A stretch of DNA of 64,000 bases from Alphaproteobacteria bacterium (GCA_965205535.1 CBDBHH010000005.1:2317773-2381772); one strand, 5' to 3'. Shown: positions 1 through 23,933, numbered from the stretch's first letter. Notes: generated by a model not told the origin, from the letters alone. Program-made: numbers and translations.

Positions 1-2083
1 CGCGTGCCTCGTCCGGTGTCTCCATGAGCGCGCCGGCCGCCATGGCCGCCTTGCGGTCGACGGGGACGGGGTCGGGCGTATCGGGCGGCGGCATCATGTT
101 GGCGTGGTAATAGGCCATGCGCTGCTTGGCCGGATCGACCTTGCGTGACGGGTCGATCTCGCGCTGGTTGACCCCCTTGGGCGCGACCGTGCGGTCGCCG
201 ACCACTTCATGATCGAACCACCATTTCTTTTTCAGATTACGCCTGCCGTTGCCCAGCGCGTCGTCCAGCCAGGTCGCGATCGGTACCATGATCGGTTTCA
301 GGAACAGGGCGTTGACCCCCATCCAGCTCGCCAGGCGGGTGAGCAGGGCGCCGTCGGTATCGACCACCTTGTTGATGGGACAGGTCTTCATGCAGCGCCC
401 ACAGGCCGACCCGTGCGGATTGGTGACACGGTAGCGCGCGCAACGTTCGGCGTCCGGCTTCCAGATCTCGTAGCCGTTGAACATTACCTTGTCGCCGAAC
501 GGGATGGCGTCGCATGGGCATTCGCGCGCGCATTTAAGGCAGTTGTTGCAGAAGGTCTGGAGCCCGAAATCGATCGGCTTGTCGGCCTCGAGTGGTATGT
601 CCGTGGTCAGCACGACGGATTTGAAGCGCGGCCCGACAAACGGGTTCAACACCAGCTCACCAATTCGGCTCATTTCGCCCAACCCCGCGAGCAGAACCAG
701 GGGGATCTGCAATACGTCGCTGTCGGCGTTGGTCTGGGCGCGGGCGGGAAACCCCAACTGGCCGAGCATGTGAGACATCACGCCGGCGATCTCCGCCCCG
801 CGCTGGTAACCGCGCATCGACTGACTGCCGGAAATCCAGTCGTCGCCGCTGGCGCCTTCCATCGTGTCGAAGCCCTGGTCGATCAGCATCACCACGGCAT
901 ATTTGTGATACATCTCGATTTCAGTGCCGTCATCCTTGTGGGAATACCAGGCATAGCGGGGGATCTCGCAAATGCCTGTCAGGTCGGCCCCCAGAAAGTA
1001 GGACAGCGACTTCAGTGCCTTGCTGTTCTGTGCCGCGTCGGAATATTTCGACATATCCGGCGCGGTTGTCGGGTTGCCATCCTGATGGGGCACCATGGCG
1101 CGGATCAAAGACACCATCGAGCGGGCGAGCGGGTGCTTCGTGGCAAACCGGGCGCGTTCGCGTTGGGCCTTGTCGCCGAGATCGCCCTGGAGGGCACGCT
1201 CAAAAAACGCCGCCCGCTTTGGCACCCGCGGGACTTCGTCATCGAGAATAAGCGTCGTGGGCCGATCAATGCGTTTGACCGTTTCCATCGGGTAGCGGCT
1301 GGCATGTGACGGGCGTCCTGCGCGGCGGTTTCGTTCGCGGCCGGACTGGGCGTCGTTGATGCCCCACCAGTAGCGCAGGCCCTTGGCATTCATCGCCTTC
1401 GCGGCCAGGGGGCGGTCGCATTCAAGCTGATAGCTGGTCGAGATGACGGCGAAGGTGAAGTTCTCGATATACGGGTTGGCGAGGCTGTCATCGTCGTTGC
1501 GGATGGCGATACCGGCCAGCACGGCGAGGCGGTCTTCGTCGAGCATCCGGTCGCCGGGAACGTCGGCGCGTGCGTCATAGCCCATCAGCCGGATATGGCC
1601 TGCAATATTGACGGCGATCTCGGTGGCCCGCATTTCGGCCGTCTCGACCACCGCGGGTTTTGTCCACTCCGCCGAGAGCGGCTCATCATCGGGCACGCGG
1701 CTATGTTCGACCATGATGACGATCGCGTGGCTGTGGGGCAGGGGCGTCGTGCCGGTTCGCCACGCGCTTTCGGGGATCAGGCAAATACCGGCCTGGCTTG
1801 CATCCAGGAAATAAGCCGCGCCCATGATGTCGACCGTGCAGCGTTTCACATCATCGGTATCGGGGGCGGTCTCGGGCGCAACATCACCGACCGCGAATTG
1901 CGCAAACATGTCGCGGAAGTTGCGCGTGACTTCGCCGAGCAGCGGCGACGCCGGGCGATCATCGGCCGGTGGGGCGGGCGGTCGTGATATTTCAAGTGTC
2001 CCGAGAGAGTCGTCTCGAGGCAACGTTTCCAGGGGAAACGAACCCAGATGAAACGGCCGATTTCCGTTCTTCAGCAGGTGCAT
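1..2083 (-). CDS. reductive dehalogenase-like protein (RdhA family, corrinoid plus two [4Fe-4S]); C-terminus runs off the window start
   Basis: Hand translation of the minus strand gives an open frame from ATG at 2083-2081 (in-frame TGA at 2098-2096) to position 1 with no stop. The C-terminal part contains FCNNCLKCARECPCDAIPF (CxxCxxCxxxCP, plus coords ~520-470) and CARYRVTNPHGSACGRCMKTCP (C-x11-CxxCxxxCP, ~455-385), the two-cluster arrangement typical of RdhA. The N-terminus has no twin-arginine motif. It is absent from the ORF track because no stop lies inside the window. Confidence 0.6.
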   Translation of the reverse strand, partial: MHLLKNGNRPFHLGSFPLETLPRDDSLGTLEISRPPAPPADDRPASPLLGEVTRNFRDMFAQFAVGDVAPETAPDTDDVKRCTVDIMGAAYFLDASQAGICLIPESAWRTGTTPLPHSHAIVIMVEHSRVPDDEPLSAEWTKPAVVETAEMRATEIAVNIAGHIRLMGYDARADVPGDRMLDEDRLAVLAGIAIRNDDDSLANPYIENFTFAVISTSYQLECDRPLAAKAMNAKGLRYWWGINDAQSGRERNRRAGRPSHASRYPMETVKRIDRPTTLILDDEVPRVPKRAAFFERALQGDLGDKAQRERARFATKHPLARSMVSLIRAMVPHQDGNPTTAPDMSKYSDAAQNSKALKSLSYFLGADLTGICEIPRYAWYSHKDDGTEIEMYHKYAVVMLIDQGFDTMEGASGDDWISGSQSMRGYQRGAEIAGVMSHMLGQLGFPARAQTNADSDVLQIPLVLLAGLGEMSRIGELVLNPFVGPRFKSVVLTTDIPLEADKPIDFGLQTFCNNCLKCARECPCDAIPFGDKVMFNGYEIWKPDAERCARYRVTNPHGSACGRCMKTCPINKVVDTDGALLTRLASWMGVNALFLKPIMVPIATWLDDALGNGRRNLKKKWWFDHEVVGDRTVAPKGVNQREIDPSRKVDPAKQRMAYYHANMMPPPDTPDPVPVDRKAAMAAGALMETPDEAR

Positions 2084-2217
2084 GGAAGGCGTGCCTCAGT
2101 GTCAGGTCGGAAGGGTGCTTCGACGCTCGAAGCGGGACCATTCTCGCGGTGAACGCCCTTAACCACAACCGCCATCGCGCGGCGACAAGTTGGCATGCAG
2201 ATTGCTCTAGAGGGGGT

Positions 2218-2430
2218 ATGAACAATCTATCTCTCATCCGTGGCCGGAATCACGATGTTGCCAATGATGTTGGCCACTCTGATGCGGACCGCGAGGCAAT
2301 GCGCAGCTGGATCACAATGCTGCGAAAGGAAGCCAAGAACCTTCGTTCCGAGGCGCAACACATGCTCGAAGTCGCTGAAGAGGCCGAAACACTGGCCGGC
2401 CGGATCGATTTTCAGCTGAAAAGCCAATAA
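2218..2430 (+). CDS. small hypothetical protein (70 aa), divergent from the rdhA-like gene
   Basis: ATG at 2218 inside ORF 1969..2430 (MNNLSLIRGRNHDV...). It is followed by a hairpin and T-run at 2504-2545. No recognisable domain. Confidence 0.25.
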   Translation: MNNLSLIRGRNHDVANDVGHSDADREAMRSWITMLRKEAKNLRSEAQHMLEVAEEAETLAGRIDFQLKSQ

Positions 2431-2503
2431 ATGCGAGCAACAGGCACGCCGGTTGCATCGTTAGGGGTAGGACACTTGAGTGTATTTGTGTCCTCCTCCC
2501 CCA

Positions 2504-2545
2504 ATAAGGCGGCGTCCAACCTGGTCGCCGCCTTTATTGTTTTCG
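2504..2545 (+). terminator. intrinsic terminator-like hairpin (aaggcggcg-N11-cgccgcctt) followed by tattgttttcg; possibly bidirectional
   Basis: GC stem of 9 bp plus a T-rich tract seen directly; an A-rich tract on the other side could serve the minus-strand Fis-like gene. Confidence 0.4.
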
Positions 2546-2722
2546 GGCCGAAACAGATTAAAACAACAATTAAATCAAATGCTTGATATGAATTATTGGT
2601 CTCGATCAGCGCTACGAACCGACCTCTGCGGGTGCGCCGCCATTGTGTCTTCGCGGTCGCAGTTTGAGACACGAAATCGCATTGTGAAACGTGATACCGC
2701 AGTCAAAATGCGAGGCGAAAGC

Positions 2723-2914
2723 CTAGTCTGCGTCGACGGCCGGGTCGGTTTCGTCCCATTTAGCGCGCTTGCGGTAGAGCGTGGCGGGCGAGACTTCCAG
2801 ATACGTCGCCGCCATACGCACATTGCCATCGCACAACTCGATCGCGCGCTCGATGGCGTCGCGCTCCATATCCTCCAACGGCCGAATGTCATCCGGCACA
2901 TTGTCCGTCGTCAT
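2723..2914 (-). CDS. small Fis-family (HTH_8) DNA-binding protein, 63 aa
   Basis: ERDAIERAIELCDGNVRMAATYLEVSPATLYRKRAKW matches the Fis/NtrC C-terminal helix-turn-helix. The start codon lies 7 bp from the IS3 element end. Confidence 0.6.
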   Translation of the reverse strand: MTTDNVPDDIRPLEDMERDAIERAIELCDGNVRMAATYLEVSPATLYRKRAKWDETDPAVDAD

Positions 2915-2974
2915 ATAAAATGGGACATCAGAGTGGTTTGAGCATTGGAGTCTCTGGCTCGTTTGTGTGATTGA

Positions 2975-3955
2975 TTATGCGGCTTGTTTCTGATGTTGCA
3001 AGCGGCGTTGTTTGATTGTGTTTTTCTTAATCTTTTCCCTTTCTCTGAGAATTGCTTTGTCGCGGCCGAAGTAGACGTCGACTGGTGTGACGTTGTTCAG
3101 GCTCTCGTGGTAGCGCCGGTTGTTGTAGTATTCGACGAAGGCCCCGATCTGGCGTTCAAGATCGCCTGGCAGATAGTAATTCTCCAGCAGAACCCGGTTC
3201 TTCATGGTCTGGTGCCAGCGTTCGATTTTGCCTTGGGTTTGTGGGTGGAACGGCGCGCCGCGAACATGCGTCATTTTTTGATCCTCCAACCAGTTGGCCA
3301 GATCGCCGGAGATGTAGCATGAACCGTTGTCGCTGAGCAGACGTGGCTTGTGACGCACAACCGCCTGGTCGCAACCAGACGCCGTCAGCGCCAGCTCGAT
3401 CGTGTCTGTCACGTCCTCAGCACGCATGTTGGTGCAAAGCTTCCACGCAATGATGTAGCGGCTGTAATCATCGAGGATCGTGCTCAGATAATACCAGCCC
3501 CAGCCAATGATCTTGAAGTAGGTGAAGTCTGTTTGCCACATCTCGTTGATGGCCGTGGTTTTGTCGGTGAACTCGTCGGCAGCTTTGATCACCATGTAGT
3601 CTGGCGCGGTGATGAGGTCAGCTGCTTTGAGAATGCGATAAGCTGATGATTCAGAGACAAAATACCGCCTCTCATCCGTGTATTTGACCGCCAGTTCCCG
3701 TGTGGTCAGCGCCTCATGTTCCAGCGCGAACTCGATCAGGTCATCACGACGAGCATCAGGGATGCGGTTCCAGACCGATCCTGGGCGTGGGGATTTGTCA
3801 GCCAGTCCATCCAGGCCGCCGTCAATATAGAGATCATACCATCGGTAGAATGTCGTGCGTGGGATGCCCAGCATGTCGAGGGTTTGTTTCACCGGCAGAT
3901 GTGATCCCTCAACGGTGCGGATGATCTCCAGTTTCTCAGACGCAGGGTATCTCAT
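2975..3955 (-). CDS. IS3 family transposase OrfB (integrase core, DDE)
   Basis: Protein with WQTDFTY...DNGSCY...QTQGKIERWH motifs typical of IS3 OrfB (rve domain); expressed as an OrfAB fusion by -1 frameshifting. Confidence 0.9.
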   Translation of the reverse strand: MRYPASEKLEIIRTVEGSHLPVKQTLDMLGIPRTTFYRWYDLYIDGGLDGLADKSPRPGSVWNRIPDARRDDLIEFALEHEALTTRELAVKYTDERRYFVSESSAYRILKAADLITAPDYMVIKAADEFTDKTTAINEMWQTDFTYFKIIGWGWYYLSTILDDYSRYIIAWKLCTNMRAEDVTDTIELALTASGCDQAVVRHKPRLLSDNGSCYISGDLANWLEDQKMTHVRGAPFHPQTQGKIERWHQTMKNRVLLENYYLPGDLERQIGAFVEYYNNRRYHESLNNVTPVDVYFGRDKAILREREKIKKNTIKQRRLQHQKQAA

Positions 3956-4326
3956 TCCTCGAACTCCCCAGCCCCTGTCATGCTTTTTTTGAGCAGACGG
4001 TTCTCAAGGGTGAGATCGGCAACGCATTCCTTTAATGCCAGCGACTCCGAGCGCAGATCCTTCACTTCGGGCGGCGTAGCCTGCCGTGCCGTGTCACCAG
4101 ATAACCGGCGCTTGCCAGCTTCGAGAAATTCCTTGGACCAGCTATAATACAGGCTCTCGGCAATCCCCTCGCGGCGGCACAGCACCGAGATGCTTTCCTC
4201 GCCACGCAGGCCCGCCAAGACGATGCGGATTTTCTCTTCAGCTGAATAGGTTTGCCGCGTCTTGCGGCGGATGTTCTTAACCACCTTGCCGGCGGCGTCT
4301 TTCGATGTCTGGGGCTTCTTCGTCAT
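3952..4326 (-). CDS. IS3 family transposase OrfA (HTH)
   Basis: RRKTRQTYSAEEKIRIV...LKKS pattern of IS3 OrfA; ends at the AAAAAAG slippery site. Confidence 0.9.
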   Translation of the reverse strand: MTKKPQTSKDAAGKVVKNIRRKTRQTYSAEEKIRIVLAGLRGEESISVLCRREGIAESLYYSWSKEFLEAGKRRLSGDTARQATPPEVKDLRSESLALKECVADLTLENRLLKKSMTGAGEFEE

Positions 4327-4480
4327 CTCGATCTCCTAATCGATAAGATGAACCAGAAATCCTCCGTTATTCAAATCCTCAATTCTGTCCCACGGGTGCT
4401 GACGTCAGACAGGGATACATGCTACAGGTGTCGCAGTCGCCTACCAAAGGCCAAAATCGTCAGTATAGGGGGGGCATCGC

Positions 4481-5101
4481 ATGACCGAGTCCAGTCTGAG
4501 GCGCTACACAAACCTTTCTGCCACGCTTCATATTTTGCAGGACAGGAGTCTCACGCTGCTCAGCCCAAGTAGTTGGGATGATAGAAATGACGCTTATTAT
4601 CTGACCGAGTATCAAAGAAGAGTCCATGCGCAGTCTGTGCTCGCTCTTTGTTTTGCAGAAGCACCCGAGACCTACCACCATTGGCGGGTGTTTTCGTCCG
4701 GCTCTGGTGGCGTATGTTTGGAGTTTGATAAAGCCAAGGTCGAAAAGTGTGTTCAGGACGATGGTCGGTTTACATGCAGATCAGTTGATTACAGGACGAT
4801 TGATGCTGCCGCGACAAAGGGTTTTGAGACAGATCAACTGCCATTTGTTAAGCGGTTTCCTTACTCGGATGAGAAAGAATTTCGCATAATCTTTGTTGAC
4901 AAGGATGATGGCAAAAATATTCAGCGGATGGAAATCTCTCTAAATGCAATCAGACGCATAACGCTCAGCCCTTGGATGCCAAGACCCCTCGCAGATGCAG
5001 TGAAATCGACGTTGAAAGGTATAAAAGGGTGCCAACACTTGAAAGTTTATCGCTCCACTCTTGTCGATAATGAACGTTGGAAAAACGCTGTTAATCAATA
5101 A
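4481..5101 (+). CDS. hypothetical protein (206 aa) in a low-GC module
   Basis: ORF with G-rich RBS (ggggggg) upstream; visibly AT-richer than flanking DNA; no confidently recognised domain. Confidence 0.5.
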   Translation: MTESSLRRYTNLSATLHILQDRSLTLLSPSSWDDRNDAYYLTEYQRRVHAQSVLALCFAEAPETYHHWRVFSSGSGGVCLEFDKAKVEKCVQDDGRFTCRSVDYRTIDAAATKGFETDQLPFVKRFPYSDEKEFRIIFVDKDDGKNIQRMEISLNAIRRITLSPWMPRPLADAVKSTLKGIKGCQHLKVYRSTLVDNERWKNAVNQ

Positions 5102-5310
5102 CTCAAGTGACTCCAATGCGTGACCCGCGCATATGGTTGTGTGGCACCGGGTCTTCTTGATGGGATGTATTGGGCGAGATAAGGGGTCTTACGCAGGTAA
5201 AGTGGCTTTCAAAGAGAGAACCCTAAAAACAGTATATTCAATAGGTTGACAGTTTTAAGTGCCTTTATCAGGTGTCGAGCGTTCGCAAAAACTAGGAAAT
5301 CTAACAATCG

Positions 5311-6387
5311 ATGGATGAGATTCCCCATACACCGAGAACGGTTTTTGTAGATACAGGCGAATACCGGTCGAAGAATTTTCATTTCGGCAACCCGGCTTTG
5401 TCGGCATTAAAATCGCATGCAAAAGAAAGAAGGGTCAGACTAATTTCGACCTCAATCACCGAAATGGAAATTCGGCGAAAAATTGCTGAATCGGTGAAAG
5501 ACGGCCTATCAAAATTATCCGGCGCTCAGGCGAATCTCGCATCTCTCCGAGATGTGCCTTCCGATGTTTATACCTTCACGCGGATCAAATTTTCTGAAGC
5601 CGGGTTGATTAGAAAAGTACATGAACTCTATGAAGCTTATTTCCGTGATTGCTCCGGAACCGTTCTGGATGCTTTTCAATGTGATGCCGAAAGCATTTTT
5701 AACGACTACTTCCACGTAAAGCCGCCCTTCAAGGAAGGCAAAAAATCAAAAGAATTTCCGGACGCTTTCGTAATGGCGACGTTGAAAGAATGGAGCGAAA
5801 CTAACGGACAAAAGCTGCACGTGATTAGCACCGACGGCGATATCAAGGCGTTCTGCGAGGTGACAGATCAGCTAATACATTTTCCGTCAACCGAAGCCTA
5901 TGTGAACTTTTTGTTTGTTGGCGAGGATATAGCCAGCGCGGAAACGCTAACCGCCTTTAACAGGATGAAACCCAAAATTGAGAAACGAATTATCGACTGG
6001 GTTCCCAACAATTTTGGCGACCTCGGCTTTGTAATCGAAGACCAGTATGACGGTGAGGTTTCTAATGTTGATGTACACGATACGGCCATCGTTGATTGGT
6101 ATGTATTGGATGTAAGCGATGACCATGTTCATGCCGAGGTGAAGTTAGAAGTGGAATTTGAAGCGGAATTTTCGTATCCCGACTACGACACTGCCTCATA
6201 CGATAGTGAGGATAAGGTGCTCATACCATGGCGCGACATTTCAGGCTCCAAGTTGACGACAACTACCGTGATGGCCGAACTTCACTACAAGGTAGATCAC
6301 AAAAAACCTGAAAACTCTGCAATCGAATCTCTGCAGTTGCCGACCCTATCAACTATCGAGATTGATGTCGGAGACGAAGGCCTGTAG
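5311..6387 (+). CDS. PIN-like domain protein (DUF4935-like N-terminus), 358 aa, acidic C-terminal half
   Basis: The N-terminus TVFVDTGEYRSKNFHFGN...RLISTSITEMEI resembles PIN-like/DUF4935 openings. Low-GC context. Family assignment is from memory and not verified. Confidence 0.45.
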   Translation: MDEIPHTPRTVFVDTGEYRSKNFHFGNPALSALKSHAKERRVRLISTSITEMEIRRKIAESVKDGLSKLSGAQANLASLRDVPSDVYTFTRIKFSEAGLIRKVHELYEAYFRDCSGTVLDAFQCDAESIFNDYFHVKPPFKEGKKSKEFPDAFVMATLKEWSETNGQKLHVISTDGDIKAFCEVTDQLIHFPSTEAYVNFLFVGEDIASAETLTAFNRMKPKIEKRIIDWVPNNFGDLGFVIEDQYDGEVSNVDVHDTAIVDWYVLDVSDDHVHAEVKLEVEFEAEFSYPDYDTASYDSEDKVLIPWRDISGSKLTTTTVMAELHYKVDHKKPENSAIESLQLPTLSTIEIDVGDEGL

Positions 6388-6462
6388 CCTTTCCGATGAG
6401 AAATATGTCACAGTATATTACACAGTGAGTCTGTAACTCATTGAAAAATAACAAGAACAATA

Positions 6463-6520
6463 GGACTTAAAATCCCTCGGCCTCACGGCCTTGCCGGTTC
6501 AAGTCCGGCCGCCCGCACCA
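6463..6520 (+). other. tRNA 3' fragment (type II tRNA, Leu-like; variable arm, T-arm, acceptor 3' strand, CCA), putative island attachment-site repeat
   Basis: ggcctcacggcc (variable-arm hairpin), gccGGTTCAAGTCCggc (T-arm), cgcccgc-A-CCA (acceptor plus CCA) ending at 6520. No matching 5' acceptor strand (gcgggcg) or D-arm upstream, so this is only the 3' part. Confidence 0.45.
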
Positions 6521-6554
6521 AATTCCTTCTATTGGTACGCTGCACCCTGAAGGA

Positions 6555-7238
6555 TCACGCGGCGTCCGCAGCGTCGCGGGCGCGGGCGTTGAGGTCGTCG
6601 AAATCATCGGGCCAGTTGTCGGCGAGCCAACGCAGATAGGTCTTTATGTTCGCCGGGTCGATGCGCACGGAGCCCCGGATCTTGTCCACCTCGGGCTGCG
6701 CCTCGATCGGCAGCTTCAGGGAATCGTTGAAGCGGTTGATCATGTTGAACATCGCGCAGATCAGTGTCAGCTCGATGATCTCGGCTGAATCAAACTGCGC
6801 CTCTACGCGCTCGAACACGTCGTCGCGCGCAGCGGCGGTGTTCTTGGTCATGTGTTCGGCCCACTCGATGGCGGCGCGTTCGCGCGCGTCAAACAAGTCA
6901 GATGTCAGGTAGTCGTCGGACGAGATGGCAATCACCTGGTCGTGTGAGATGCCGGCCGCCTCACCGAGTGCGGTGTTGTGGGCGTAGCAATATTCGCAGC
7001 CGTTGACGTGGCTGGTCTTGATGATGACCATTTCCTTGAGCTTCGATGACAGGTGCACGCCCGGCCACTCGCGCTGGTTAGCAGCCTGGAAGGGCAGGTA
7101 CAGCATCGCCAGGTAGGGTGCATGCGCCATCGTGCGATAGGCGTTCGGGACCCGGCCGACGAGGCCCGTGACCGCGTCATAGAAATGCTTGAGCTCGTCC
7201 GGGGCATTCTCGGGATTGATGTTCGGTACGCGCGACAT
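6555..7238 (-). CDS. carboxymuconolactone decarboxylase family protein (AhpD-like, CxxC)
   Basis: HVNGCEYCYAHN motif and 227 aa length; strong RBS AGGAGAGAAAGC before the ATG. Confidence 0.8.
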   Translation of the reverse strand: MSRVPNINPENAPDELKHFYDAVTGLVGRVPNAYRTMAHAPYLAMLYLPFQAANQREWPGVHLSSKLKEMVIIKTSHVNGCEYCYAHNTALGEAAGISHDQVIAISSDDYLTSDLFDARERAAIEWAEHMTKNTAAARDDVFERVEAQFDSAEIIELTLICAMFNMINRFNDSLKLPIEAQPEVDKIRGSVRIDPANIKTYLRWLADNWPDDFDDLNARARDAADAA

Positions 7239-7255
7239 GCTTTCTCTCCTGGTGC

Positions 7256-8242: not shown

Positions 8243-8420
8243 GATGTTCTCCCTTATTGGCATACAGCCTAACAATGGCCGGAACCGTCGAACTATGGAT
8301 AAGTTCCGCGTCTCAATGCCTGAGCGCAATCCATTCTGCCCACACGGCCCTGACAATCGTCGCCAGACAGCCTATTTTCAGGGGCACCTATTCGTTTGAC
8401 CTCACGTCGGAGCCTCCGCA

Positions 8421-9404: not shown

Positions 9405-9428
9405 AATGTTGCGATCCGGAGCAATGGC

Positions 9429-9833
9429 ATGACCGTGCATGATTCACCTGTGCGTTATCTTGCACCCGCAGGTGCCATCGAACCCACAGGTACCTGGTCG
9501 TTGGCGAGCCGTGCCGGGGACTATGTGTTTGTCGCCGGCATGCGCGGTATCGACCCCGCCACGAACGCATTGGTCGAAGGCGATGAGAACCGCATACGCC
9601 AGGCATTTGTGAACATGGCGCATATTGCGGCGTCGGAAGGCGCGGGATTGGGCGATGCTGTCCGACTGACCGTCTATGTCACCGATATGGACCGCTATCG
9701 GCCGATCGTGAACAAGGTGCAGGAAGAGATGTGGTCCGGCGGGCCCTATCCGCCGCGCACGATCCTGGAGGTGTCGGCCTTGAACCAGGATGATATCTTC
9801 GAAGTCGAAGGTACTTTTTACGTCCCCGTCTGA
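9429..9833 (+). CDS. RidA/YjgF family protein (possibly an AmnD-like deaminase)
   Basis: 134 aa with RidA-like fold signature (...VRLTVYVTDMD...); RBS GGAG 7 nt upstream. The earlier ATG at 9424 hits TGA immediately. Confidence 0.8.
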   Translation: MTVHDSPVRYLAPAGAIEPTGTWSLASRAGDYVFVAGMRGIDPATNALVEGDENRIRQAFVNMAHIAASEGAGLGDAVRLTVYVTDMDRYRPIVNKVQEEMWSGGPYPPRTILEVSALNQDDIFEVEGTFYVPV

Positions 9834-11038: not shown

Positions 11039-11089
11039 GGCGTCATCAGTGATGTTGTCTCGTGGGACCGTTCCGCACGATCAGGAAAG

Positions 11090-11128
11090 AAAAAGGGCGC
11101 CGGCTGGTGCCGACGCCCTTTTCTTGTT
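11090..11128 (-). terminator. intrinsic terminator (palindromic hairpin with flanking A- and T-runs) downstream of the OmpA-like gene
   Basis: aaaaagggcgccggc-tggt-gccgacgcccttttcttgtt seen directly. Confidence 0.5.
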
Positions 11129-11143
11129 CGGTATCAATGTCGC

Positions 11144-13539: not shown

Positions 13540-13649
13540 CGTGTGCCGTTTCAGTGGACCATGTGTTCGCGTGACATTGGACATATCGGACGCGCCGATC
13601 AACACATCAGGTTCAATCGGCGATATCGGTATCTGCAGAGCAGGAGAGA

Positions 13650-15089: not shown

Positions 15090-15094
15090 AGTTG

Positions 15095-16507: not shown

Positions 16508-17897
16508 CCATCGTCCCCTGGTCACGCAGCATCGCAAGTGTGTCGTCGAGCGCACGCGTGAAACGCTTGATCATCTCCGCGATCTCGTCCTTGTTGATAA
16601 TCAGCGGCGGGCAGAATGAGATGGTGTCGCCGATGGCACGCACGATCAGCCCATGTTCCTCCGCGCGTTCATTGCAGTAGGGGCCGACGCCGAGTGCCGG
16701 GTCGAAGGCCTCGCCCGTCGTCCTGTCGCGGACCAGTTCCACACCAGCCACGAGGCCCTTGCCGCGCACTTCGCCGACGAGGGGGTGTTCGAGCAGCGCT
16801 TCTAATCCACCCATGAAGTGCGGTTCCATGGCCCGAACATGGCCGACGATGTCTTCCTCTTCGTAGATGCGCAGGGTTTCGCGGGCCACGGCCGCCGACA
16901 CCGGATGTCCGGAATAGGTGAAACTCAGCCCGAACACGCCGACCCGGTCGCTTTCTTCCGCGATCACGTCGAACACGCGGGCATTCACCATCAGTGCCGA
17001 AATCGGGATGTATGCGCTCGACAGGCCCTTGGCGCAGACCAGCATATCGGGCTCCAGGCCCATCGTGGTCGTGCCGAACATATTGCCGGTTCGCCCGAAG
17101 GCCGTGATCACCTCGTCGGCAATCAGCAGCATGTCGTGCTTGCGGATGACCGCCTGGATTTTCTCGTAATAGGTCGGCGGCGGCACGATCACGCCGCCAG
17201 AGCCCATGATCGGCTCTGTGAAGAACGCGCCCACCGTCTCGGGACCCTCGGCCTCGATCAGCGCGTCGAGTTCATCGGCCAGGCGGGTGGCGAAATCTTC
17301 CTCGCTCTCGCCCGGTTTTGCGTAGCGATAGTGATGGGGCGGGGTGACATGCAGGAAGCCGTCGAGCGGCAGTCCGAATGACGCGTGATTGTAGTGCATG
17401 CCCGACAGGCTGGCCGAGGCAATCGTGTTGCCGTGATAGGCGCGTTGATGGGCGATGATCTTTCGCTTCTCGGGCTTGCCCATCGCGTGCCAGTAGTACC
17501 AGACGATCCGCGCGGCGCTGTCGTTGCCTTCCGAGCCTGAATTGGCGAACCAGATTTTCGACATTGGCACAGGCGCGAGTTCGAGCAGCTTCTCCGCCAG
17601 GTCGATCACCGGCGAATGGCTCTTGTGATTGGTGAGGTGATAGTAGGGCAGGCGGGCCATCTGGTCGGCGGCGGCCTTGACCAGCCGGTCCTGCCCGTAG
17701 CCCAGCGAGATACACCACAGGCCAGCCATGCCCTCGATGTATTTCTTGCCATGGGCATCCGCGACCCAAACGCCCTTGCCCTCTTCGATGACGACAGGGC
17801 CTTTGTCCAGATGCGTCTTCAGGTTGGTGAGCGGGTGGATTACCGATGCGGCATCACGCGCTTCGGGCGAGTTTGGGCGAGGTGAATCGTCGGGCAT
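16500..17897 (-). CDS. class III aminotransferase (omega-transaminase, beta-alanine/pyruvate-type family)
   Basis: PLP fold-type I class III motifs (...FIADEVITAFGRTG..., ...CAKGLSS...); start MPDDS with RBS GGAGA. Confidence 0.85.
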   Translation of the reverse strand: MPDDSPRPNSPEARDAASVIHPLTNLKTHLDKGPVVIEEGKGVWVADAHGKKYIEGMAGLWCISLGYGQDRLVKAAADQMARLPYYHLTNHKSHSPVIDLAEKLLELAPVPMSKIWFANSGSEGNDSAARIVWYYWHAMGKPEKRKIIAHQRAYHGNTIASASLSGMHYNHASFGLPLDGFLHVTPPHHYRYAKPGESEEDFATRLADELDALIEAEGPETVGAFFTEPIMGSGGVIVPPPTYYEKIQAVIRKHDMLLIADEVITAFGRTGNMFGTTTMGLEPDMLVCAKGLSSAYIPISALMVNARVFDVIAEESDRVGVFGLSFTYSGHPVSAAVARETLRIYEEEDIVGHVRAMEPHFMGGLEALLEHPLVGEVRGKGLVAGVELVRDRTTGEAFDPALGVGPYCNERAEEHGLIVRAIGDTISFCPPLIINKDEIAEMIKRFTRALDDTLAMLRDQGTMDD

Positions 17898-17959
17898 GCC
17901 GGTCTCCAGTCTGGAAGCCATCATGATACATCACCGAAACCCGGTGCGGTATCGGTGGG

Positions 17960-19315
17960 CTATGCGGCCAGCTTGATACCCTTGAGGACGCGCCGGCCGG
18001 ATTTGGCGAGTTCATCCATCTTGCCGCGCAGACCGCGATATTTGAGCTTGCCGTTCTGCTTCTGGATCTTGCCCGCGATCATGACCGTGTCCACGTTGCC
18101 GCCATGGGCGTGGAAGACCACGCTTTCGATCGGGTTGTGAACCGGGAACAGGTTCAGGTCGTTCCCATTGATCATAATGATATCGGCCTGTTTGCCGACC
18201 TTGAGTGAGCCGACTTTCCGCTCCAGGCCCATCGCCCTGGCAGCGTTGATGGTCGCCCATTCAAGCGCTTCGCGCGGTTTGATCGAAAGGCTGCCCACCA
18301 TGGCCTTGGTCTTGTGGAACGTCGCCTGATTGTCGAGCAGGCGTTGGGGCTGCATGGCCATGCGCATCACCGTGAACATATCGCCGGAGATGTTGCACTC
18401 CACATCAATGCCGATGCTCGGCTTGCCGCCCAGTGCGCGCACACGCCCGATCAACGGGTTGCCGTGCCCCATCTGGATCTCGACTTCGGGCGTGATTGTT
18501 GTCGACGCACCGCTGTCGATGACGAGCTTGAGTTCCGCGTCCGACAGGTAGTTGCCGTGAACCATGTTGTGCCGGCGGTCGAGCAAATTGAGTTTGGCGA
18601 GTTTCTTGTAGCCGTCGGGGTTCAGACGATTGGGCGCGCCCCAGACATGGGTGCTGATGATCAGGTCGAGTTCCTTGGCCAGTCGGAAATCATGCTCAAC
18701 GACGTCCCATGTAGAAAAGTCGACACCGAGTGCCGACATCGCCAGCGTGACGAGGCCGTCGTCGTCGGACAGGGCGCCTGCGCGCAATCTCTCCAGCTCG
18801 GCCCGCGGGTGCGGAATTTCGCTGAAATGTTTTGCGCCTTTTTTGGCGTCGGGTTTGGGTGAGCCGTGGCCGAACAGGGCCCGCACTCCCGCTTCCTGTA
18901 GCCCCCGAACGCCGGCATCGGAATGGGCCGGGGTCGAGTTGTTGTGGCACCAGTCGAATATTGTGGTCGCACCCAGATTGATCTGGTTCAGGGCACCAAC
19001 AAGATTGCCGAGATAGGTATCGTTCGCTGTGTAGCGCGGCGCGATCGTGGCGTGCATCTGGTGCAGATATTCAGGAATGGACCAGTTGCCTGCGACCCCA
19101 CGAATGCCGGTCTGCCAGGTGTGAAGATGGGCATTCACGAAGCCCGGCATAACGATCATGCCGGTCGCATCGATCACTTTTGCGCCCGGTGAACGGATCG
19201 ACTTGCCGATTTTCTCGATTTCGCTGCCATTGACGAGAATGTCGCCCTTGGCCAAGTCACCGGTCTTGCGGTCCATCGATATGATGGCGCCGCCCTTGAT
19301 GAGGGTCTTGGTCAT
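17960..19315 (-). CDS. amidohydrolase (cytosine deaminase/chlorohydrolase-like, HxH metal site)
   Basis: MTKTLIKGGAIISMD...GFVNAHLHTWQ... typical of amidohydrolase_1 deaminase/chlorohydrolase enzymes; RBS AAGGAA. Confidence 0.8.
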   Translation of the reverse strand: MTKTLIKGGAIISMDRKTGDLAKGDILVNGSEIEKIGKSIRSPGAKVIDATGMIVMPGFVNAHLHTWQTGIRGVAGNWSIPEYLHQMHATIAPRYTANDTYLGNLVGALNQINLGATTIFDWCHNNSTPAHSDAGVRGLQEAGVRALFGHGSPKPDAKKGAKHFSEIPHPRAELERLRAGALSDDDGLVTLAMSALGVDFSTWDVVEHDFRLAKELDLIISTHVWGAPNRLNPDGYKKLAKLNLLDRRHNMVHGNYLSDAELKLVIDSGASTTITPEVEIQMGHGNPLIGRVRALGGKPSIGIDVECNISGDMFTVMRMAMQPQRLLDNQATFHKTKAMVGSLSIKPREALEWATINAARAMGLERKVGSLKVGKQADIIMINGNDLNLFPVHNPIESVVFHAHGGNVDTVMIAGKIQKQNGKLKYRGLRGKMDELAKSGRRVLKGIKLAA

Positions 19316-19334
19316 TGGTGGGTTCCTTGAAAAT

Positions 19335-20273
19335 TTACTCGGCGGCGTCTTTCAGGCCGTCATCGACCTCGACATTCTCGGCCTTGATCTCGTAGCCGGC
19401 GGCCTTCGCCTGCATCTTGATCAGCGCGGCGAAATCGTCTTCTCCGTGGCCCGCACCAATCAGCGCCTGGACCATCTCGCGGGTCAGATTGGTGATGGGC
19501 ATCGGCACTTCCAGGTCACGCGCCTCGGCGAGGGCCAGATCGAGGTCCTTGCGCAGCATCTTCGACGTATGGGTCGCCGTGTAGTCGAGGTTTACCAGGG
19601 CCGGTGCCTTGTAATTGGTGAAGATCGACGACATGGCGCTGTTGTTGAAATAGTTCAGGAAGGCATGGCGCTCAATTCCGCCTTTCTCGCAAAGAACCGT
19701 AATTTCGGCCATGCATTGCGCGACAACGCCGAGCATGACGTTGTGCGCGAGCTTCGCGAGACGTGAGGAATCACCCTCGCCGATATATGTCTCGGCGCGC
19801 CCGAGGGCGCCGATATAAGGTCGCGCGATGTCGTAGGCCTCGCGCGGGCCGGATACCCCCAGTGTTGCCTTGCCCGCGGCCACCGCATGGCCGTTGCCGC
19901 TGATCGGCGTGGCCAGGAACATGACACCCTTGGCCTCGCATGCAGCGCGCATTTCCATCGATGTTTCAATCGAGATCGTCGAGCTGTCACTGATGATTTT
20001 CGGCAAGGCCGAACCGGACAGCACACCGTCCGGGCCTGTGATCATTTCACGGATTGCCGTGTCGTCGGTGACGATCGTGAAGACGATATCCCGGTCGGCG
20101 AGATCGGACGGCTTACCGACAACTTCGACGCCCAGTGGTTCCGCCTTGACGGCCGTGCGATTGTAGGCTTTCACATCGGCGCCCGCCGCGATCAGAAGCC
20201 CGGCCATCGGGTAGCCCATCTTGCCCGTACCGATCCAACCGACGGTATGTGACTTCAGATTGTCGCCAGACAT
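19335..20273 (-). CDS. NAD(P)-dependent dehydrogenase, 3-hydroxyisobutyrate dehydrogenase family
   Basis: VGWIGTGKMG dinucleotide fold plus HIBADH-family C-terminus; RBS GAGGGAGAG. Confidence 0.8.
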   Translation of the reverse strand: MSGDNLKSHTVGWIGTGKMGYPMAGLLIAAGADVKAYNRTAVKAEPLGVEVVGKPSDLADRDIVFTIVTDDTAIREMITGPDGVLSGSALPKIISDSSTISIETSMEMRAACEAKGVMFLATPISGNGHAVAAGKATLGVSGPREAYDIARPYIGALGRAETYIGEGDSSRLAKLAHNVMLGVVAQCMAEITVLCEKGGIERHAFLNYFNNSAMSSIFTNYKAPALVNLDYTATHTSKMLRKDLDLALAEARDLEVPMPITNLTREMVQALIGAGHGEDDFAALIKMQAKAAGYEIKAENVEVDDGLKDAAE

Positions 20274-20378
20274 TATTCTCTCTCCCTCGGGAATGCTGTT
20301 TGATTGTTAGCGTAACAGGTGCTGGGCTATACCGCGTCGACTTTCTATCGAACGGTTCGCACCGCGTACGGAATTGAG

Positions 20379-21014
20379 ATGCCAGAAGAACCCGTTAATC
20401 CACCGCCGACATCCTTCGTCGAATGGAGCGATACCGCGCGCACTGCGAACCTTCGTGAAACGCTCGCCGCAGCACCCGACGCGGATACATTGTGGGTGTT
20501 TGCGGCCGGGTCCCTGATCTGGGACCCGCGTTTCGAACCCGACGAAACCCGCATCGCCACGCTGTCGGACTATCGCCGCGCCTTCAGTTTCTGGACCATT
20601 CGCTCGCGCGGATCCTTCGAGCGCCCGGGCCTCGGCCTGGCGCTGGAGCCGGGTGGCACTTGTGAAGGCATGGTGTTTCGCGTGCCAGAGACGGGGCGCG
20701 ACGAGATTCTGGATGCCTTGTGGCGGCGCGAAATGAGCGGCGGGGTTTATGTGCCGACCTGGGCAAAGGCAGAAACCGACGCGGGCGAGGTCTGGGCGCT
20801 GGGGTTCGTCGCGAACCGGGATCATCTGAACTATGCGGGGCAATTGCCCGTCGAGACATCGGCGCGGATTATCGCTACCGCGCTCGGAACCTTCGGGACC
20901 TGCCACGAGTATCTCTCACTGCTGGTCGAGGCGCTGGACCACCACGGCCTCGAGGACCGAGAGACACGCGAGCTGCATGAACTTGTGCAGCGTGAGCTCG
21001 GCGCCGCGACGTGA
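20379..21014 (+). CDS. ChaC-like gamma-glutamylcyclotransferase
   Basis: WVFAAGSLIW motif and ChaC length; an alternative GTG start at 20319 is possible. Confidence 0.7.
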   Translation: MPEEPVNPPPTSFVEWSDTARTANLRETLAAAPDADTLWVFAAGSLIWDPRFEPDETRIATLSDYRRAFSFWTIRSRGSFERPGLGLALEPGGTCEGMVFRVPETGRDEILDALWRREMSGGVYVPTWAKAETDAGEVWALGFVANRDHLNYAGQLPVETSARIIATALGTFGTCHEYLSLLVEALDHHGLEDRETRELHELVQRELGAAT

Positions 21015-21625
21015 CCGAGCAACAGACATCGGCCGATCGCAATCGTGATGACATTTTTATGGTGTTGCGTGAGGTCGTGCCGGAAGCGGGAAGCATTCTG
21101 GAGATCGCGAGCGGTGCGGGAAAACATGCGGCTCATTTTGCCGCTGAGTTTGCCCCGCGCGTCTGGCAATCCAGCGAATATGATCCCGATCGGATCGAGA
21201 TCATGCGCGGACGGTTCTCGCGTCTCGATCTGCCAAATCTGCGCGACCCCGTTCTGTTGGACGTGAGTGCCGACTGCTGGCCTGTCGAGGTGAGCTGGTC
21301 CGACCCGCCGATACGCATGATCTACAACGTCAACATGATCCACATCGCACCCTGGTCGGCATGCCTGGGTCTTCTCGCCGGGGCGGCGCGCATTCTTCGC
21401 GCTGATGGCGTGTTGTTCATCTACGGACCGTTCAATCGCGATGGTGCGTACACATCGGAAGGTAACGCGGAATTTGACCGCTCACTGCGTGCGCAGAATG
21501 CCGAATGGGGATTGCGGGACCTGACCGAGGTGTGCGACGCGGCAGGGGCGGCGGGTCTTTCGCTGGACCGGGTCGTCGAGATGCCGGTCAACAACTTGTC
21601 TGTGGTATTTCGCGCCGCGAGATAG
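21011..21625 (+). CDS. DUF938 family protein (SAM-dependent methyltransferase-like)
   Basis: GTGA overlap with the chaC-like stop; EIASGAGKHAAHFA...IHIAPW pattern of DUF938. Confidence 0.65.
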   Translation: MTEQQTSADRNRDDIFMVLREVVPEAGSILEIASGAGKHAAHFAAEFAPRVWQSSEYDPDRIEIMRGRFSRLDLPNLRDPVLLDVSADCWPVEVSWSDPPIRMIYNVNMIHIAPWSACLGLLAGAARILRADGVLFIYGPFNRDGAYTSEGNAEFDRSLRAQNAEWGLRDLTEVCDAAGAAGLSLDRVVEMPVNNLSVVFRAAR

Positions 21626-21653
21626 AATGATAGCCCGGCTTGGGGAGGCCATG

Positions 21654-21997
21654 ATGACCGTCAAGAAACTTCAGAACGCTTACTATGTCACGGCAGACAT
21701 GGACCGTGCGATCGCGTTTTACCGCGACACGCTGGGGCTCGATCTGGCGTTTCAGGACGGTGGAAAATGGGCCCAGCTCAAGGCAACTTCGCGCTGAGTT
21801 CTGCCGAGGAGGCCCCCGAAGGTGCGGTTGGCGCGACCGTGGTGTTCGAAGTGCCCGATGCGGCGGCGGCGGGTGCCGCTATTGCAGAAGCGGGCGGTGA
21901 AATTCTCGGCGAACGGGACATGGGCGACCATGGCAAGACGCTGACCTTCCGTGACCCCGACGGCAATCTCGTGCAGCTGTTCCAGCGCGCGTCCTGA
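21654..21997 (+). pseudogene. VOC (glyoxalase/bleomycin-resistance) family gene interrupted by a 1-bp frameshift near 21785
   Basis: N-part MTVKKLQNAYYVTADMDRAIAFYRDTLGLDLAFQDGGKWAQLKA hits TGA at 21796. The C-part (NFALSSAEEAPEGAVGATVVFEVPD...DPDGNLVQLFQRAS) continues in the +1 frame (track ORF 21767..21997). Confidence 0.5.
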
Positions 21998-22034
21998 TAT
22001 CAAATTAATCAATCAAGAGTTCGAGGAGAGAGTT

Positions 22035-23021
22035 ATGGAGACCAACGCATTCCGCATCTACAAGTTTGGCGGCACCGAGGAGATGAAGTGGGAGACCGTC
22101 GAGGTCCCCAAGCCGGGGCGCGGCGAGGTCCTGTTGCGACACACCGTTGTCGGGCTCAACCTGGCCGATACCTACCGCCGGACCGGGCTCTACCCGATGC
22201 CGCTGCCAAATGGCATGGGCAACGAGGCCGTGGGCGTGGTTGAGGCGGTTGGCCCGGGCGTGCGCGCCCTGAAGGTCGGTGACCGGGTGGGCTATATCGG
22301 TGGCCAGACATTCGATGCGTATTCAAAACGTCGCGTGGCGAAGGTGTCGGGCCTGATTCCGCTGCCGAAGTTCATCAACGACCGCACCGCTGCGGCCGCC
22401 TTGCTCAAGGGAATCACCGCGCAGTATCTCCTGCGTGACGCCTACAAGGTGAAGCGGGGCGACACGATCCTCGTACACGCCGCCGCAGGCGGTGTCGGGC
22501 TCATCATGTGCCAGTGGGCCAGTGCCATCGGGGCGACGGTGATCGGTACAGTCAGCACCGCGGCAAAGGCGAAGATCGCCAAGCGCAACGGCTGCCATCA
22601 CCCCATCGTGGTCAAGCGCAAGGGGCCGAAGTTCGCCAAGAAGGTCCGCGAACTGACGGACGGCAAGGGTGTGCATTGCGTATATGACTCTGTCGGCAAG
22701 GAAACCTGGGAAGAATCCCTGGCCTCGGTTCGCCTCCGCGGCTCCGTCATCAATTTCGGCAGCGCGTCGGGTAACCCGCCGCTCACGGACATCGCTGCCA
22801 CCGGACCGATCGGCTCTCCCTATATCGCGCGCTGCGCCCTGGTGAACTACACGACCAGCCGCAAGGAAACGATGGCGCGCGCCGACGACCTGTTCAAGGC
22901 GATCAAGAAGGGCCATGTCAAAATCCGCGTGAATCAGCGCTATCCCTTGAAGGATGCCGCCAAGGCACACCGTGATATCGAGGGCCGCCGGACGACCGGA
23001 CAGACGATCCTGATTCCGTAA
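22035..23021 (+). CDS. NADPH:quinone oxidoreductase (zeta-crystallin/Qor family)
   Basis: METNAFRI... start with RBS GAGGAGAGAG; AAGGVGL NADPH motif; MDR superfamily. Confidence 0.85.
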   Translation: METNAFRIYKFGGTEEMKWETVEVPKPGRGEVLLRHTVVGLNLADTYRRTGLYPMPLPNGMGNEAVGVVEAVGPGVRALKVGDRVGYIGGQTFDAYSKRRVAKVSGLIPLPKFINDRTAAAALLKGITAQYLLRDAYKVKRGDTILVHAAAGGVGLIMCQWASAIGATVIGTVSTAAKAKIAKRNGCHHPIVVKRKGPKFAKKVRELTDGKGVHCVYDSVGKETWEESLASVRLRGSVINFGSASGNPPLTDIAATGPIGSPYIARCALVNYTTSRKETMARADDLFKAIKKGHVKIRVNQRYPLKDAAKAHRDIEGRRTTGQTILIP

Positions 23022-23045
23022 CCCAAAGCACGTGAAGGACGCGAG

Positions 23046-23924
23046 ATGACCTGGACAGACAAGAAGTTTGCCGACGTCAACGGCCGCCGTATGGCCTATG
23101 TGGAAACCGGCGACCTCGATGGCGATCCCATCCTGTTTCTGCACGGCAATCCCACGTCCAGCTATCTCTGGCGTAACATCATCCCCTATGCCGAGGGCCT
23201 CGGGCGCTGTCTTGCGCCCGACCTCATCGGCATGGGGGATTCCGAGAAACTTCCCGATAGCGGGCCGGACCGGTACCGCTTCGTCGAGCATCGCGAATAT
23301 CTCGACGCGCTGCTCGACCAGCTTGGCGTGAACGCCAATGTCACCCTGGTGATTCACGACTGGGGGAGCGGGCTCGGATTCGACTGGGCAAACCGCAATC
23401 GTGATGCGGTTAAGGGCATCGCGTACATGGAAGCCATGGTCAAACCGCGCAGTTGGGAGGATTTCCCGGAGCGTGCGCGGCCAGCCTTCCAGGCGATGCG
23501 TTCGCCCAAAGGCGACGAGATGGTGCTCGAGAACAACTTCTTCGTCGAGACGATGTTGCCGGGGTCGATCCTGCGGGACCTGACCCAGACGGAGCATGAC
23601 GAGTATCGCCGGCCATTCACCGAGCCCGGCGAGGCCCGTCGTCCTACCCTGACCTGGCCGCGCCAGCTTCCCATTGATGGCGAGCCGGCCGATGTCACGC
23701 AGATCATGGAAGACTATGCCGAATGGCTTTCGACGTCCGAGGTACCGAAACTGTTCGTAGACGCCAGTCCCGGTGCGATTCTCAGTGATGGTCCGAGCCG
23801 GGATTTCTGTCGAACATGGCCGAACCAGACCGAGGTCCAGGTCAAGGGATCTCATTTCATCCAGGAAGATTCACCCGACGAGATCGGCCAGGCGCTTGCC
23901 GATTGGCTGAAGGCTATCGGCTAG
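23046..23924 (+). CDS. dhaA: haloalkane dehalogenase, HLD-II (DhaA/LinB-like)
   Basis: LHGNPTSSYLWRNIIP, DLIGMGDS, IHDWGSGLGF, IAYMEAM and a C-terminal HFIQED-like His region match DhaA/LinB almost motif-for-motif; 292 aa. Confidence 0.9.
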   Translation: MTWTDKKFADVNGRRMAYVETGDLDGDPILFLHGNPTSSYLWRNIIPYAEGLGRCLAPDLIGMGDSEKLPDSGPDRYRFVEHREYLDALLDQLGVNANVTLVIHDWGSGLGFDWANRNRDAVKGIAYMEAMVKPRSWEDFPERARPAFQAMRSPKGDEMVLENNFFVETMLPGSILRDLTQTEHDEYRRPFTEPGEARRPTLTWPRQLPIDGEPADVTQIMEDYAEWLSTSEVPKLFVDASPGAILSDGPSRDFCRTWPNQTEVQVKGSHFIQEDSPDEIGQALADWLKAIG

Positions 23925-23933
23925 GCTCGCGCG

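Follow-up and report, generated by a model that had tools for sequence, protein, structure and literature searches.

Three dehalogenase-family genes within 24 kb of a marine alphaproteobacterial chromosome, probably independent of one another

Marine bacteria meet large amounts of natural brominated and chlorinated compounds, and it therefore matters which genomes dehalogenate, and how. The DNA studied here, referred to as the window, is a stretch of 64,000 nucleotides (nt) from an Alphaproteobacteria bacterium (GCA_965205535.1, CBDBHH010000005.1:2317773-2381772). Within 24 kb it carries three dehalogenase-type genes whose open reading frames (ORFs) are all real: a reductive dehalogenase gene (rdhA), a gene for an alpha/beta hydrolase resembling haloalkane dehalogenases (HLDs), hereafter the HLD-like gene, and a gene for an HLD of subfamily II (HLD-II). 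An initial annotation of this DNA had taken them for three mechanistically distinct types, partly assembled by a mobile segment and pointing to specialisation on halogenated substrates. At most two mechanisms would be represented, since both alpha/beta-hydrolase genes would use Asp-nucleophile hydrolytic chemistry. Loci of relatives and homologues used for comparison are labelled L001 to L113, and the comparisons were made on contigs of metagenome-assembled genomes (MAGs) with flanks of at most 10 kb.

The three genes and their identities

According to gene order and Pfam content, the three genes would form three separate transcription units with unrelated genes between them (Table 1). The rdhA gene is on its own (minus strand), a CMD/AhpD-like gene comes after the HLD-like gene, and HLD-II is preceded by a quinone-reductase-like gene. 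All three have the native guanine plus cytosine (G+C) content of 57-63% and lie in DNA that is collinear with relatives. Foreign or mobile-looking DNA is limited to about 3.6 kb (2902-6463), made up of an insertion sequence (IS) of the IS3 family and a low-GC segment. When positions 1-24000 were compared with plasmids by megablast, the IS3 was the sole match. Further along, the window contains a formate-dehydrogenase-like molybdopterin oxidoreductase with a NuoF-like subunit (41086-47833) and a flagellar cluster with FlhA, FlhF-like, MotA, FliG, FliF, FlgE and a sigma-54 activator (50654-63694). Given these respiratory and flagellar genes and the plasmid result, the replicon is probably a chromosome and not a plasmid.

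Table 1. Position, strand and supporting evidence of the features described in the text.
Feature	Position	Strand	Evidence or remark
rdhA, NpRdhA-type (catabolic, cytoplasmic) reductive dehalogenase	2-2083	-	PDB 4RAS/6ZXU match
Sigma-54-type promoter, TGGCATG-N4-TTGC	2191-2206	+	Invariant in three lineages
Small hydrophilic ORF, about 70 residues, divergent from rdhA	2219 (ATG) to 2430 (stop)	+	82% identical to a 93-residue ORF beside rdhA in L006
Second sigma-54-type promoter, hairpin, CCUCCUCCCCC stretch and intrinsic terminator	2442-2545	+	Conserved; candidate small RNA
3' remnant of a sigma-54-dependent response regulator, last ~64 codons, HTH_8 region	2723-2901	-	tblastn with the L006/L008 regulators
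IS3-family insertion sequence	2902-4411	-	orfA 3952-4326, orfB 2975-3955; Pfam HTH_Tnp_1 and rve
Low-GC segment (~48%)	4412-6463	+	Absent from relatives; collinearity with L013 ends at 6463
PDC-S31-like candidate defence gene, 206 residues	4481-5101	+	PADLOC PDC-S31, E 2.9e-14
PIN_12 protein, 358 residues	5311-6387	+	Pfam
CMD/AhpD-like 'peroxidase-related' gene	6555-7238	-	PF02627; TIGR01926 63 bits, below cut-off
HLD-like alpha/beta hydrolase, 328 residues	7256-8242	-	HLD-I-type pentad; uncharacterised clade
Amidohydro_2 gene, divergent from the HLD-like gene	8421-9404	+	Pfam; pair kept in relatives, 83-97% identity
Intervening block: MFS, OmpA-like, CinA, EamA, two amidases, class-III aminotransferase, Amidohydro_1, 3-hydroxyisobutyrate-dehydrogenase-like, ChaC, DUF938	9818-21625		Pfam
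Glyoxalase/VOC gene	21654-21994	+	Frameshifted; matches orthologue in two frames
NADPH:quinone-reductase-like gene (QOR)	22035-23021	+	Directly upstream of HLD-II
HLD-II haloalkane dehalogenase, 292 residues	23046-23924	+	NF002938, pentad, tree
TauE/SafE-type permease gene	23940-24676	+	Downstream of HLD-II; frameshifted, tblastn with L108 orthologue matches two frames
GloB	26772-27557		Beyond the 24-kb range

The RdhA-like frame that had been noticed at the window start was recovered. Six-frame translation gave 694 codons running from position 2083 to the window start, where the C-terminus is cut by the edge. Its nearest database homologues are 92% identical, belong to Rhodospirillaceae MAGs, where they are named 'Fe-S protein', and are 739 residues long, so the window edge cuts off about 45 C-terminal codons. 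The product matched NpRdhA (PDB 4RAS/6ZXU) with E 1e-192 and 48.7% identity over 680 residues, its residues 4-698 corresponding to chain positions 27-717, with the N-terminal domain included. The alignment showed that the active-site residues Y426, K488, R552 and S422 of NpRdhA are kept, as are F290, F310 and M423. In NpRdhA, Y426 and K488 form the proton-donor dyad, and R552 and S422 bind the phenol hydroxyl group of the substrate (PMC7565698). The motif cysteines of the two [4Fe-4S] clusters (C512, C515, C518, C522, C548, C561, C564 and C568), and additionally C524, all align to Cys, and Pfam gave a Fer4_7 match. The score with the RDH model TIGR02486 was 159.1 bits against a cut-off of 160.35, for a match at residues 384-576 of a query short of some 45 C-terminal residues.

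Because the active-site residues of NpRdhA are conserved, the enzyme is expected to remove ortho-halogens from phenolics, and its substrates would be compounds such as bromohydroxybenzoates or bromophenols. It would be a cytoplasmic cobalamin/[4Fe-4S] protein that takes electrons from a separate ferredoxin/flavodoxin system. In this regard, the full-length relatives of 739 residues have no fused reductase domain, and inspection by eye of the N-terminus (MHLLKNGNRPFHLG...) revealed no RR motif of a twin-arginine (Tat) signal. Furthermore, no gene for an RdhB membrane anchor is adjacent: upstream there is the hydrophilic small ORF and, in relatives, downstream there is an alpha/beta hydrolase gene (the window lacks this downstream side).

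As for the gene at 23046-23924, its description as a DhaA/LinB-like HLD-II was borne out. The ORF contains HGNPTSSYLWRNIIP and IHDWGSG, and its product reached 434.4 bits with the NCBIfam equivalog NF002938, whose cut-off is 241. Its PDB matches included 7PW1 (E 2e-131, 66% identity), 4C6H (66% identity) and LinB (E 5e-124, 62% identity), and its pentad N35, D105, W106, E129 and H270 corresponds to N38, D108, W109, E132 and H272 of LinB. In neighbour-joining (NJ) trees it grouped with LinB and an Agrobacterium HLD-II, the HLD-II clade being recovered in 188/200 and 268/300 bootstraps. Judged by score, pentad and tree position, the predicted product is a bona fide HLD-II, which would act by the classical SN2 hydrolytic mechanism.

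The HLD-like protein

The initial annotation had called the gene at 7256-8242 an HLD-I of the DhlA type. Its ORF, whose ATG start is preceded by a good ribosome-binding site, does contain LHGEPTWGYLYRN and QDWGG, and the pentad is of the HLD-I type, but the score lies below the HLD-I cut-off and the protein falls outside HLD-I in trees. The catalytic set consists of the nucleophile D114, W115, the cap residues W159 and W162, D256 and H285, plus E48 in the HGEP motif. MAFFT aligned DhlA D124, W125, D260 and H289 with D114, W115, D256 and H285, the WxxW of the cap covers DhlA W175, and the HGEP glutamate is kept. An Asp nucleophile and a His are therefore present in the alignments of both HLD-type proteins of the window, with Asp as the acid in this one and Glu in HLD-II. 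Within the clade of the HLD-like protein, D114, W115, W159, W162 and H285 are invariant (40/40 members aligned) and the acid is Asp or Glu.

The best NCBIfam match was the HLD-I model NF002043, with 156.9 bits against a cut-off of 265. Seven clade-side relatives scored between 158 and 185 bits with this model, HLD-II proteins (that of the window and the references) between 112 and 131, and eight plasmid-borne annotated haloalkane dehalogenases, DhlA among them, between 301 and 496. Trees were built by a distance method (NJ) with a limited reference set that holds no epoxide hydrolases or fluoroacetate dehalogenases. In them the HLD-I references were monophyletic without the HLD-like clade in 194/200 and 294/300 bootstraps (97-98%), and an HLD-III core anchored by DhmeA was recovered in 284/300. 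The HLD-like clade joined HLD-I, -II or -III in at most 3% of the replicates, and never (0/300) the core formed by DhmeA and Flammeovirga. Placement by phylogeny thus confirmed the subfamily of one of the two genes, HLD-II, and put the other outside HLD-I, -II and -III.

Identity to DhlA is 30%, and no characterised member closer than about 32% was found among the PDB matches listed, the plasmid tblastn matches and the tree references. All 60 sequence matches listed from the PDB are HLDs, HLD derivatives (engineered or ancestral) or the HLD-III-like DhmeA. The AlphaFold model has a pLDDT of 78, with low confidence in the cap, and its best 50 Foldseek matches in the PDB are all HLDs (subfamilies I, II and III) or HLD-derived, with DhmeA first, then DhlA and DpcA. 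Among plasmid-encoded tblastn matches (E<=1e-15), the annotation is haloalkane dehalogenase or alpha/beta fold hydrolase where there is one. The family occurs in marine and aquatic Alphaproteobacteria, Acidimicrobiia, Dehalococcoidia (Chloroflexota), Myxococcota and others, and its naming is inconsistent: NCBI uses 'alpha/beta fold hydrolase', and JGI uses haloalkane dehalogenase, pimeloyl-ACP methyl ester carboxylesterase or oxetanone decarboxylase.

Taken at the level of sequence, the protein has HLD-I-type catalytic residues yet falls outside HLD-I, and indeed outside all three subfamilies, in a large clade without a characterised member. Epoxide hydrolases carry an HGxP-aromatic motif and fluoroacetate dehalogenases an Asp-Arg form. 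Both identities were considered for this gene and rejected, on the HGEP motif, the D-W pair and the single near-invariant cap Tyr; neither family was among the best matches. The enzyme is probably a hydrolytic dehalogenase, and its substrates are possibly halogenated. Caution is called for because OleB-type proteins with the pentad can carry out other reactions. Low dehalogenase activity, and in some cases another principal activity, is reported for such HLD-III-like proteins (PMC10503415), and the product of 7256-8242 could likewise perform another reaction, in the manner of the OleB-type beta-lactone decarboxylases, in which case only two real dehalogenases would be left in the region. This view concerns one part of the overall interpretation and is compatible with the rest of it. 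It draws on the low NF002043 scores of the protein and of all clade members tested, on the position outside the three subfamilies, on the low-confidence cap region and on the varying names of relatives in NCBI and JGI. It has to contend with a catalytic set that does not vary across the clade apart from the choice of acid, with an HGEP motif in the HLD-I form, with sequence and structural matches that all lead to HLDs, their derivatives or DhmeA, and with the fact that no ole genes lie nearby. We regard it as a serious alternative, somewhat short of an even chance.

Dehalogenation being the function that we consider probable, a further proposal can be made, although on balance we doubt it: that the clade is a fourth, biochemically unexplored HLD lineage with a Trp-Trp halide clamp and a scaffold equidistant from HLD-I, -II and -III. 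No 'HLD-IV' subfamily was found in the literature searched, and the EnzymeMiner papers did not settle whether the clade has already been described. If it comprises true dehalogenases with a substrate range of their own, this lineage of more than 4000 sequences would be a large overlooked sink for natural haloalkanes.

The genes around the HLD-like gene gave no conserved neighbour that hints at its substrate, as neighbour clustering found no family in more than 12 of 80 loci. In L014, whose HLD-like gene is 87% identical, none of the neighbours seen in the window lies alongside. The CMD gene begins 17 nt downstream of the HLD-like gene and is probably co-transcribed with it; it adjoins the HLD-like gene in one of the 80 loci (L013) and lies 6.3 kb away in L012. 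A similar CMD/AhpD-like gene was seen directly upstream of an unrelated DatA-like HLD-II on plasmid pAt2 of Agrobacterium tumefaciens (L100:1-274), and a recurring role as an HLD accessory is possible, though the clade as a whole does not show this pairing. An acyl-CoA dehydrogenase gene comes directly after the HLD-like gene in several close relatives (L012:10997-12217, L001:11045-12256, L002:4260-5471). Moreover, L001 and L002 have an extradiol-dioxygenase-like gene and an SDR gene just past the divergent Amidohydro_2 gene, which the window and L013 do not. Such neighbours are a possible hint that, in some genomes, the clade works in an aromatic or acyl-CoA context. Tandem HLD-like paralogues were observed in 5 of the 80 loci (e.g., L076:9072-9989), mostly in Dehalococcoidia MAGs.

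Synteny, the IS3 junction and the meaning of the clustering

The intervening block between the HLD-like gene and the HLD-II neighbourhood is syntenic in relatives, being collinear with L012, L013, L108, L011 and L111, and its genes are nitrogen and detoxification genes with no relation to halogens. The initial annotation was right about the two amidases, Amidohydro_2, Amidohydro_1, ChaC and the quinone-reductase-like gene, but GloB is found outside the interval to which it was assigned. Collinearity extends over 6463-18216 with L013 and over 13063-24714 with L108, in the latter case at 87% nt identity. As these two loci belong to the same MAG contig, in which the HLD-like gene and HLD-II are 14.8 kb apart just as in the window, the proximity of both genes was inherited within a narrow lineage. 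Their predicted operons are different, within a core block specific to the lineage. Where relatives have an HLD-II of 82-92% identity, content and order are kept for the amidase, aminotransferase, amidohydrolase, dehydrogenase, ChaC and DUF938 genes and for the run from glyoxalase to GloB, and the order glyoxalase-QOR-HLD-II is kept in L010, L011 and L108-L113. HLD-II starts 24 nt after the QOR gene and, to judge from its conserved neighbours, would be co-transcribed with the glyoxalase-, quinone-reductase- and permease-type genes as part of a conserved housekeeping or detoxification operon. The frameshifts in the glyoxalase and TauE genes reflect either real pseudogenes or indel errors of long-read assembly.

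The rdhA gene has a stable locus of its own elsewhere. In relatives with 92% and 81% identity its neighbourhood comprises a sigma-54 activator, the small ORF, rdhA, a hydrolase of 239-241 residues, Amidohydro_2 and a Rieske gene, and no HLD is present there. In the assembly of one relative having both, RdhA and HLD-II are on different contigs (1.08 and 0.61 Mb), and RdhA or HLD-II was found within 10 kb of none of 80 HLD-like loci from other genomes. Co-localisation of the three genes is not conserved across these genomes and, as far as the sequences compared can tell, their clustering is not a conserved unit. Within the window, no foreign composition or mobile boundaries enclose the three genes; the left boundary lies outside it.

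The nucleotide homology to the rdhA locus of L006 stops at position 2903 (last aligned base), beside the end of the IS3 at 2902. What remains of the regulator gene matched, in tblastn with the L006 and L008 regulators, exclusively their residues ~406/423-480. The IS3, whose ends (2902 and 4411) were set from inverted repeats and BLAST, is 84% identical at the nt level to IS3 family transposase elements on Hoeflea plasmids. Its inverted repeats are imperfect, its flanking triplets are CAT and GGG, and no target-site duplication or direct repeats were detected at 2902-4411. On its other side, the low-GC segment carries genes for a PDC-S31-like and a PIN_12 protein, which might together be a small module against phages. 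In L013 the CMD gene is followed by genes for a GINT1_N-domain protein, a MoCF/FAD-synthase-like protein, SfsA, an M24 peptidase and an adenylosuccinate-lyase-family protein; beyond the HLD-like/CMD pair, L012 has yet other genes, differing from those of L013, and rdhA is absent there from both of these closest relatives. The simplest reading is that an IS-associated rearrangement at a variable spot put a truncated rdhA locus beside the HLD-like block. The claim of assembly from a mobile segment is therefore sustained for this one joint, with its IS3 and its homology break, but not for the HLD genes, which lie in a native syntenic block.

Alternatively, the juxtaposition might come from the assembly of the chromosome out of metagenome data, as a chimeric join at a repeated IS3 copy. 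The breakpoint coincides with an IS end without target duplication, the frameshifts in two nearby genes could be long-read indel errors, and the records of identical proteins point to one contig of 3.6 Mb that comes from metagenomes. Nevertheless, an element of 1.5 kb is normally spanned by long reads, the DNA to the right of the IS is unique, low in G+C and without any other known locus, and both sides are about equally diverged (~86% nt) from Rhodospirillaceae/Alphaproteobacteria MAGs and have the same GC content. Such an artefact is very unlikely in our view.

We estimate a probability of about 0.7 that these are three independent, individually common dehalogenase-family genes that form no integrated organohalide pathway or island. 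HLD-II and the HLD-like gene would be ancestral neighbours, 14.8 kb apart in a core block common to close relatives, and rdhA would have moved to its present site by a rearrangement at an IS3 copy, in which the adjoining sigma-54 activator lost some 420 codons and a short piece of foreign low-GC DNA stayed behind at the joint. Most likely each gene acts on its own. Gene identities, catalytic residues, synteny and breakpoints come directly from the sequence comparisons, whereas substrates, operon structure and the lack of functional coupling are inferred. All three families are very common in marine metagenomes, with 3139 matches for rdhA (E<=1e-30), 4179 for the HLD-like gene (E<=1e-20) and at least 8000 for HLD-II (E<=1e-40).

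It is by comparison improbable that mobile elements built an island for organohalide catabolism here, with the reductive and the hydrolytic dehalogenases working jointly on marine halogenated compounds. In favour of it, all three ORFs are intact with their catalytic residues, rdhA is separated from the other two genes by an IS3 and foreign DNA of low G+C content, and a CMD/AhpD-like gene accompanies not only the HLD-like gene but also an HLD-II encoded on an Agrobacterium pAt plasmid, a hint that this accessory may recur. However, only about 3.6 kb looks foreign, HLD-II and the HLD-like gene reside in a native, syntenic chromosomal block of normal GC content, the rdhA side is what is left of a locus that relatives keep stably elsewhere, and the arrangement, which does not recur, has no common transporter, regulator or downstream catabolic gene. 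For the same reasons (separate units, syntenic unrelated neighbours, 0/80 loci, common families), the comparative evidence does not support specialisation on halogenated substrates.

Some points weigh against independence of the three genes. The probability of finding three such genes by chance in 24 kb of a replicon of ~3.6 Mb is about 1e-4 (estimated as n(w/L)^(n-1), assuming that there are only three and that placement is random), and selection for proximity is therefore a possibility. At least one close relative keeps the spacing between the HLD-like gene and HLD-II, for which function and not shared ancestry could be the reason, and a larger island is possible because the left flank of rdhA lies outside the window. 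The case is built, additionally, from sequence comparisons with short-flanked MAG contigs. On the reading preferred here, shared ancestry and one IS-associated rearrangement explain the gene proximity, and the example shows how little physical closeness of dehalogenase-family genes says about a dedicated pathway. Two of the three are ordinary, widespread marine genes, and the most useful lead is the HLD-like gene: its clade is populous, has all catalytic residues and bears inconsistent names, and knowing the activity of a single representative would decide how thousands of sequences are to be annotated.

The DNA between rdhA and the IS3 has features of its own. The initial annotation had placed rdhA beside an IS3 element and a tRNA fragment; the former does adjoin the rdhA locus, but no tRNA was found by ARAGORN in the whole window or by Rfam (E<=1) in 1900-6700. 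The supposed fragment is probably the conserved sigma-54 promoter, hairpin and terminator at 2442-2545, which has equivalents at L006:1830-1935 (minus strand) and L008:9560-9650 (minus strand), that is, in three lineages. Its promoter reads TGGCAC-N5-TTGC in relatives, versus AGGCAC in the window. The candidate small RNA, of about 75 nt, would consist of a hairpin, a single-stranded CCUCCUCCCCC tract and the terminator, with a folding energy of -35.9 kcal/mol and a z-score of -4.8, and has no Rfam match in the same search. The element looks like an undescribed sigma-54-dependent small RNA beside an NtrC-type activator, an arrangement presumably reminiscent of the luxO/qrr1 layout in Vibrio. 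A search of the minus strand directly before rdhA gave no sigma-54 promoter. Activator, small ORF and candidate small RNA may constitute a regulatory module for reductive dehalogenation in this lineage. With the activator next to them truncated, the two sigma-54 units may be inactive in this genome unless another activator, such as the paralogue at 54820-56187, substitutes for it.

Relative to L108, its closest relative, the window has two insertions. That at 24714-26753 holds an AT3+SGNH acyltransferase gene (24741-26660, minus strand), and that at 30713-33519 matches the ankyrin-repeat gene region of L011 and L111.

Comparison with known systems

The closest known system to the rdhA product is NpRdhA of Nitratireductor pacificus pht-3B, together with the catabolic, oxygen-tolerant reductive dehalogenases that include BhbA, with which it has in common full-length homology, the active-site residues and the Fe-S cysteines. 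It differs from NpRdhA by the pocket changes A419G, P311A and K307R, which may alter halogen or substrate preference. A homologue with 73% identity has a GntR regulator and a TRAP transporter as neighbours, whereas the sub-lineage of the window has instead the sigma-54 activator, the small ORF and the candidate small RNA beside rdhA, the activator being destroyed in the window itself.

For HLD-II, the closest enzymes are those of the LinB/HanR type (PDB 1CV2, 4BRZ/4C6H and 7PW1; we take 4BRZ/4C6H to be HanR), with 62-66% identity and the same pentad positions. The genetic context is different: linB is on a catabolic plasmid, while the HLD-II of the window is chromosomal, in a conserved glyoxalase-QOR-HLD-TauE-GloB neighbourhood.

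The HLD-like protein shares with HLD-I of the DhlA/DpcA type the HGEPTW and QDWGG motifs, the Asp nucleophile, the His base, the Asp acid after strand 7, the Trp adjacent to the nucleophile and a cap Trp. It is set apart from them by an identity of only about 30%, by the WxxW cap motif and, in its closest relatives, by a C-terminal tail of about 25 residues. With the HLD-III-like enzymes of the DhmeA/OleB type it has the acid Asp at the same position, and DhmeA is its top Foldseek match (8OOH/8CKP, E 4e-20; by sequence, E 1e-31 and 26% identity). The second halide-binding residue of HLD-III is the Asn of an HGNP motif (PMC10503415); where HLD-III uses this Asn, the HLD-like clade has a Glu in its HGxP motif and a Trp in the cap.

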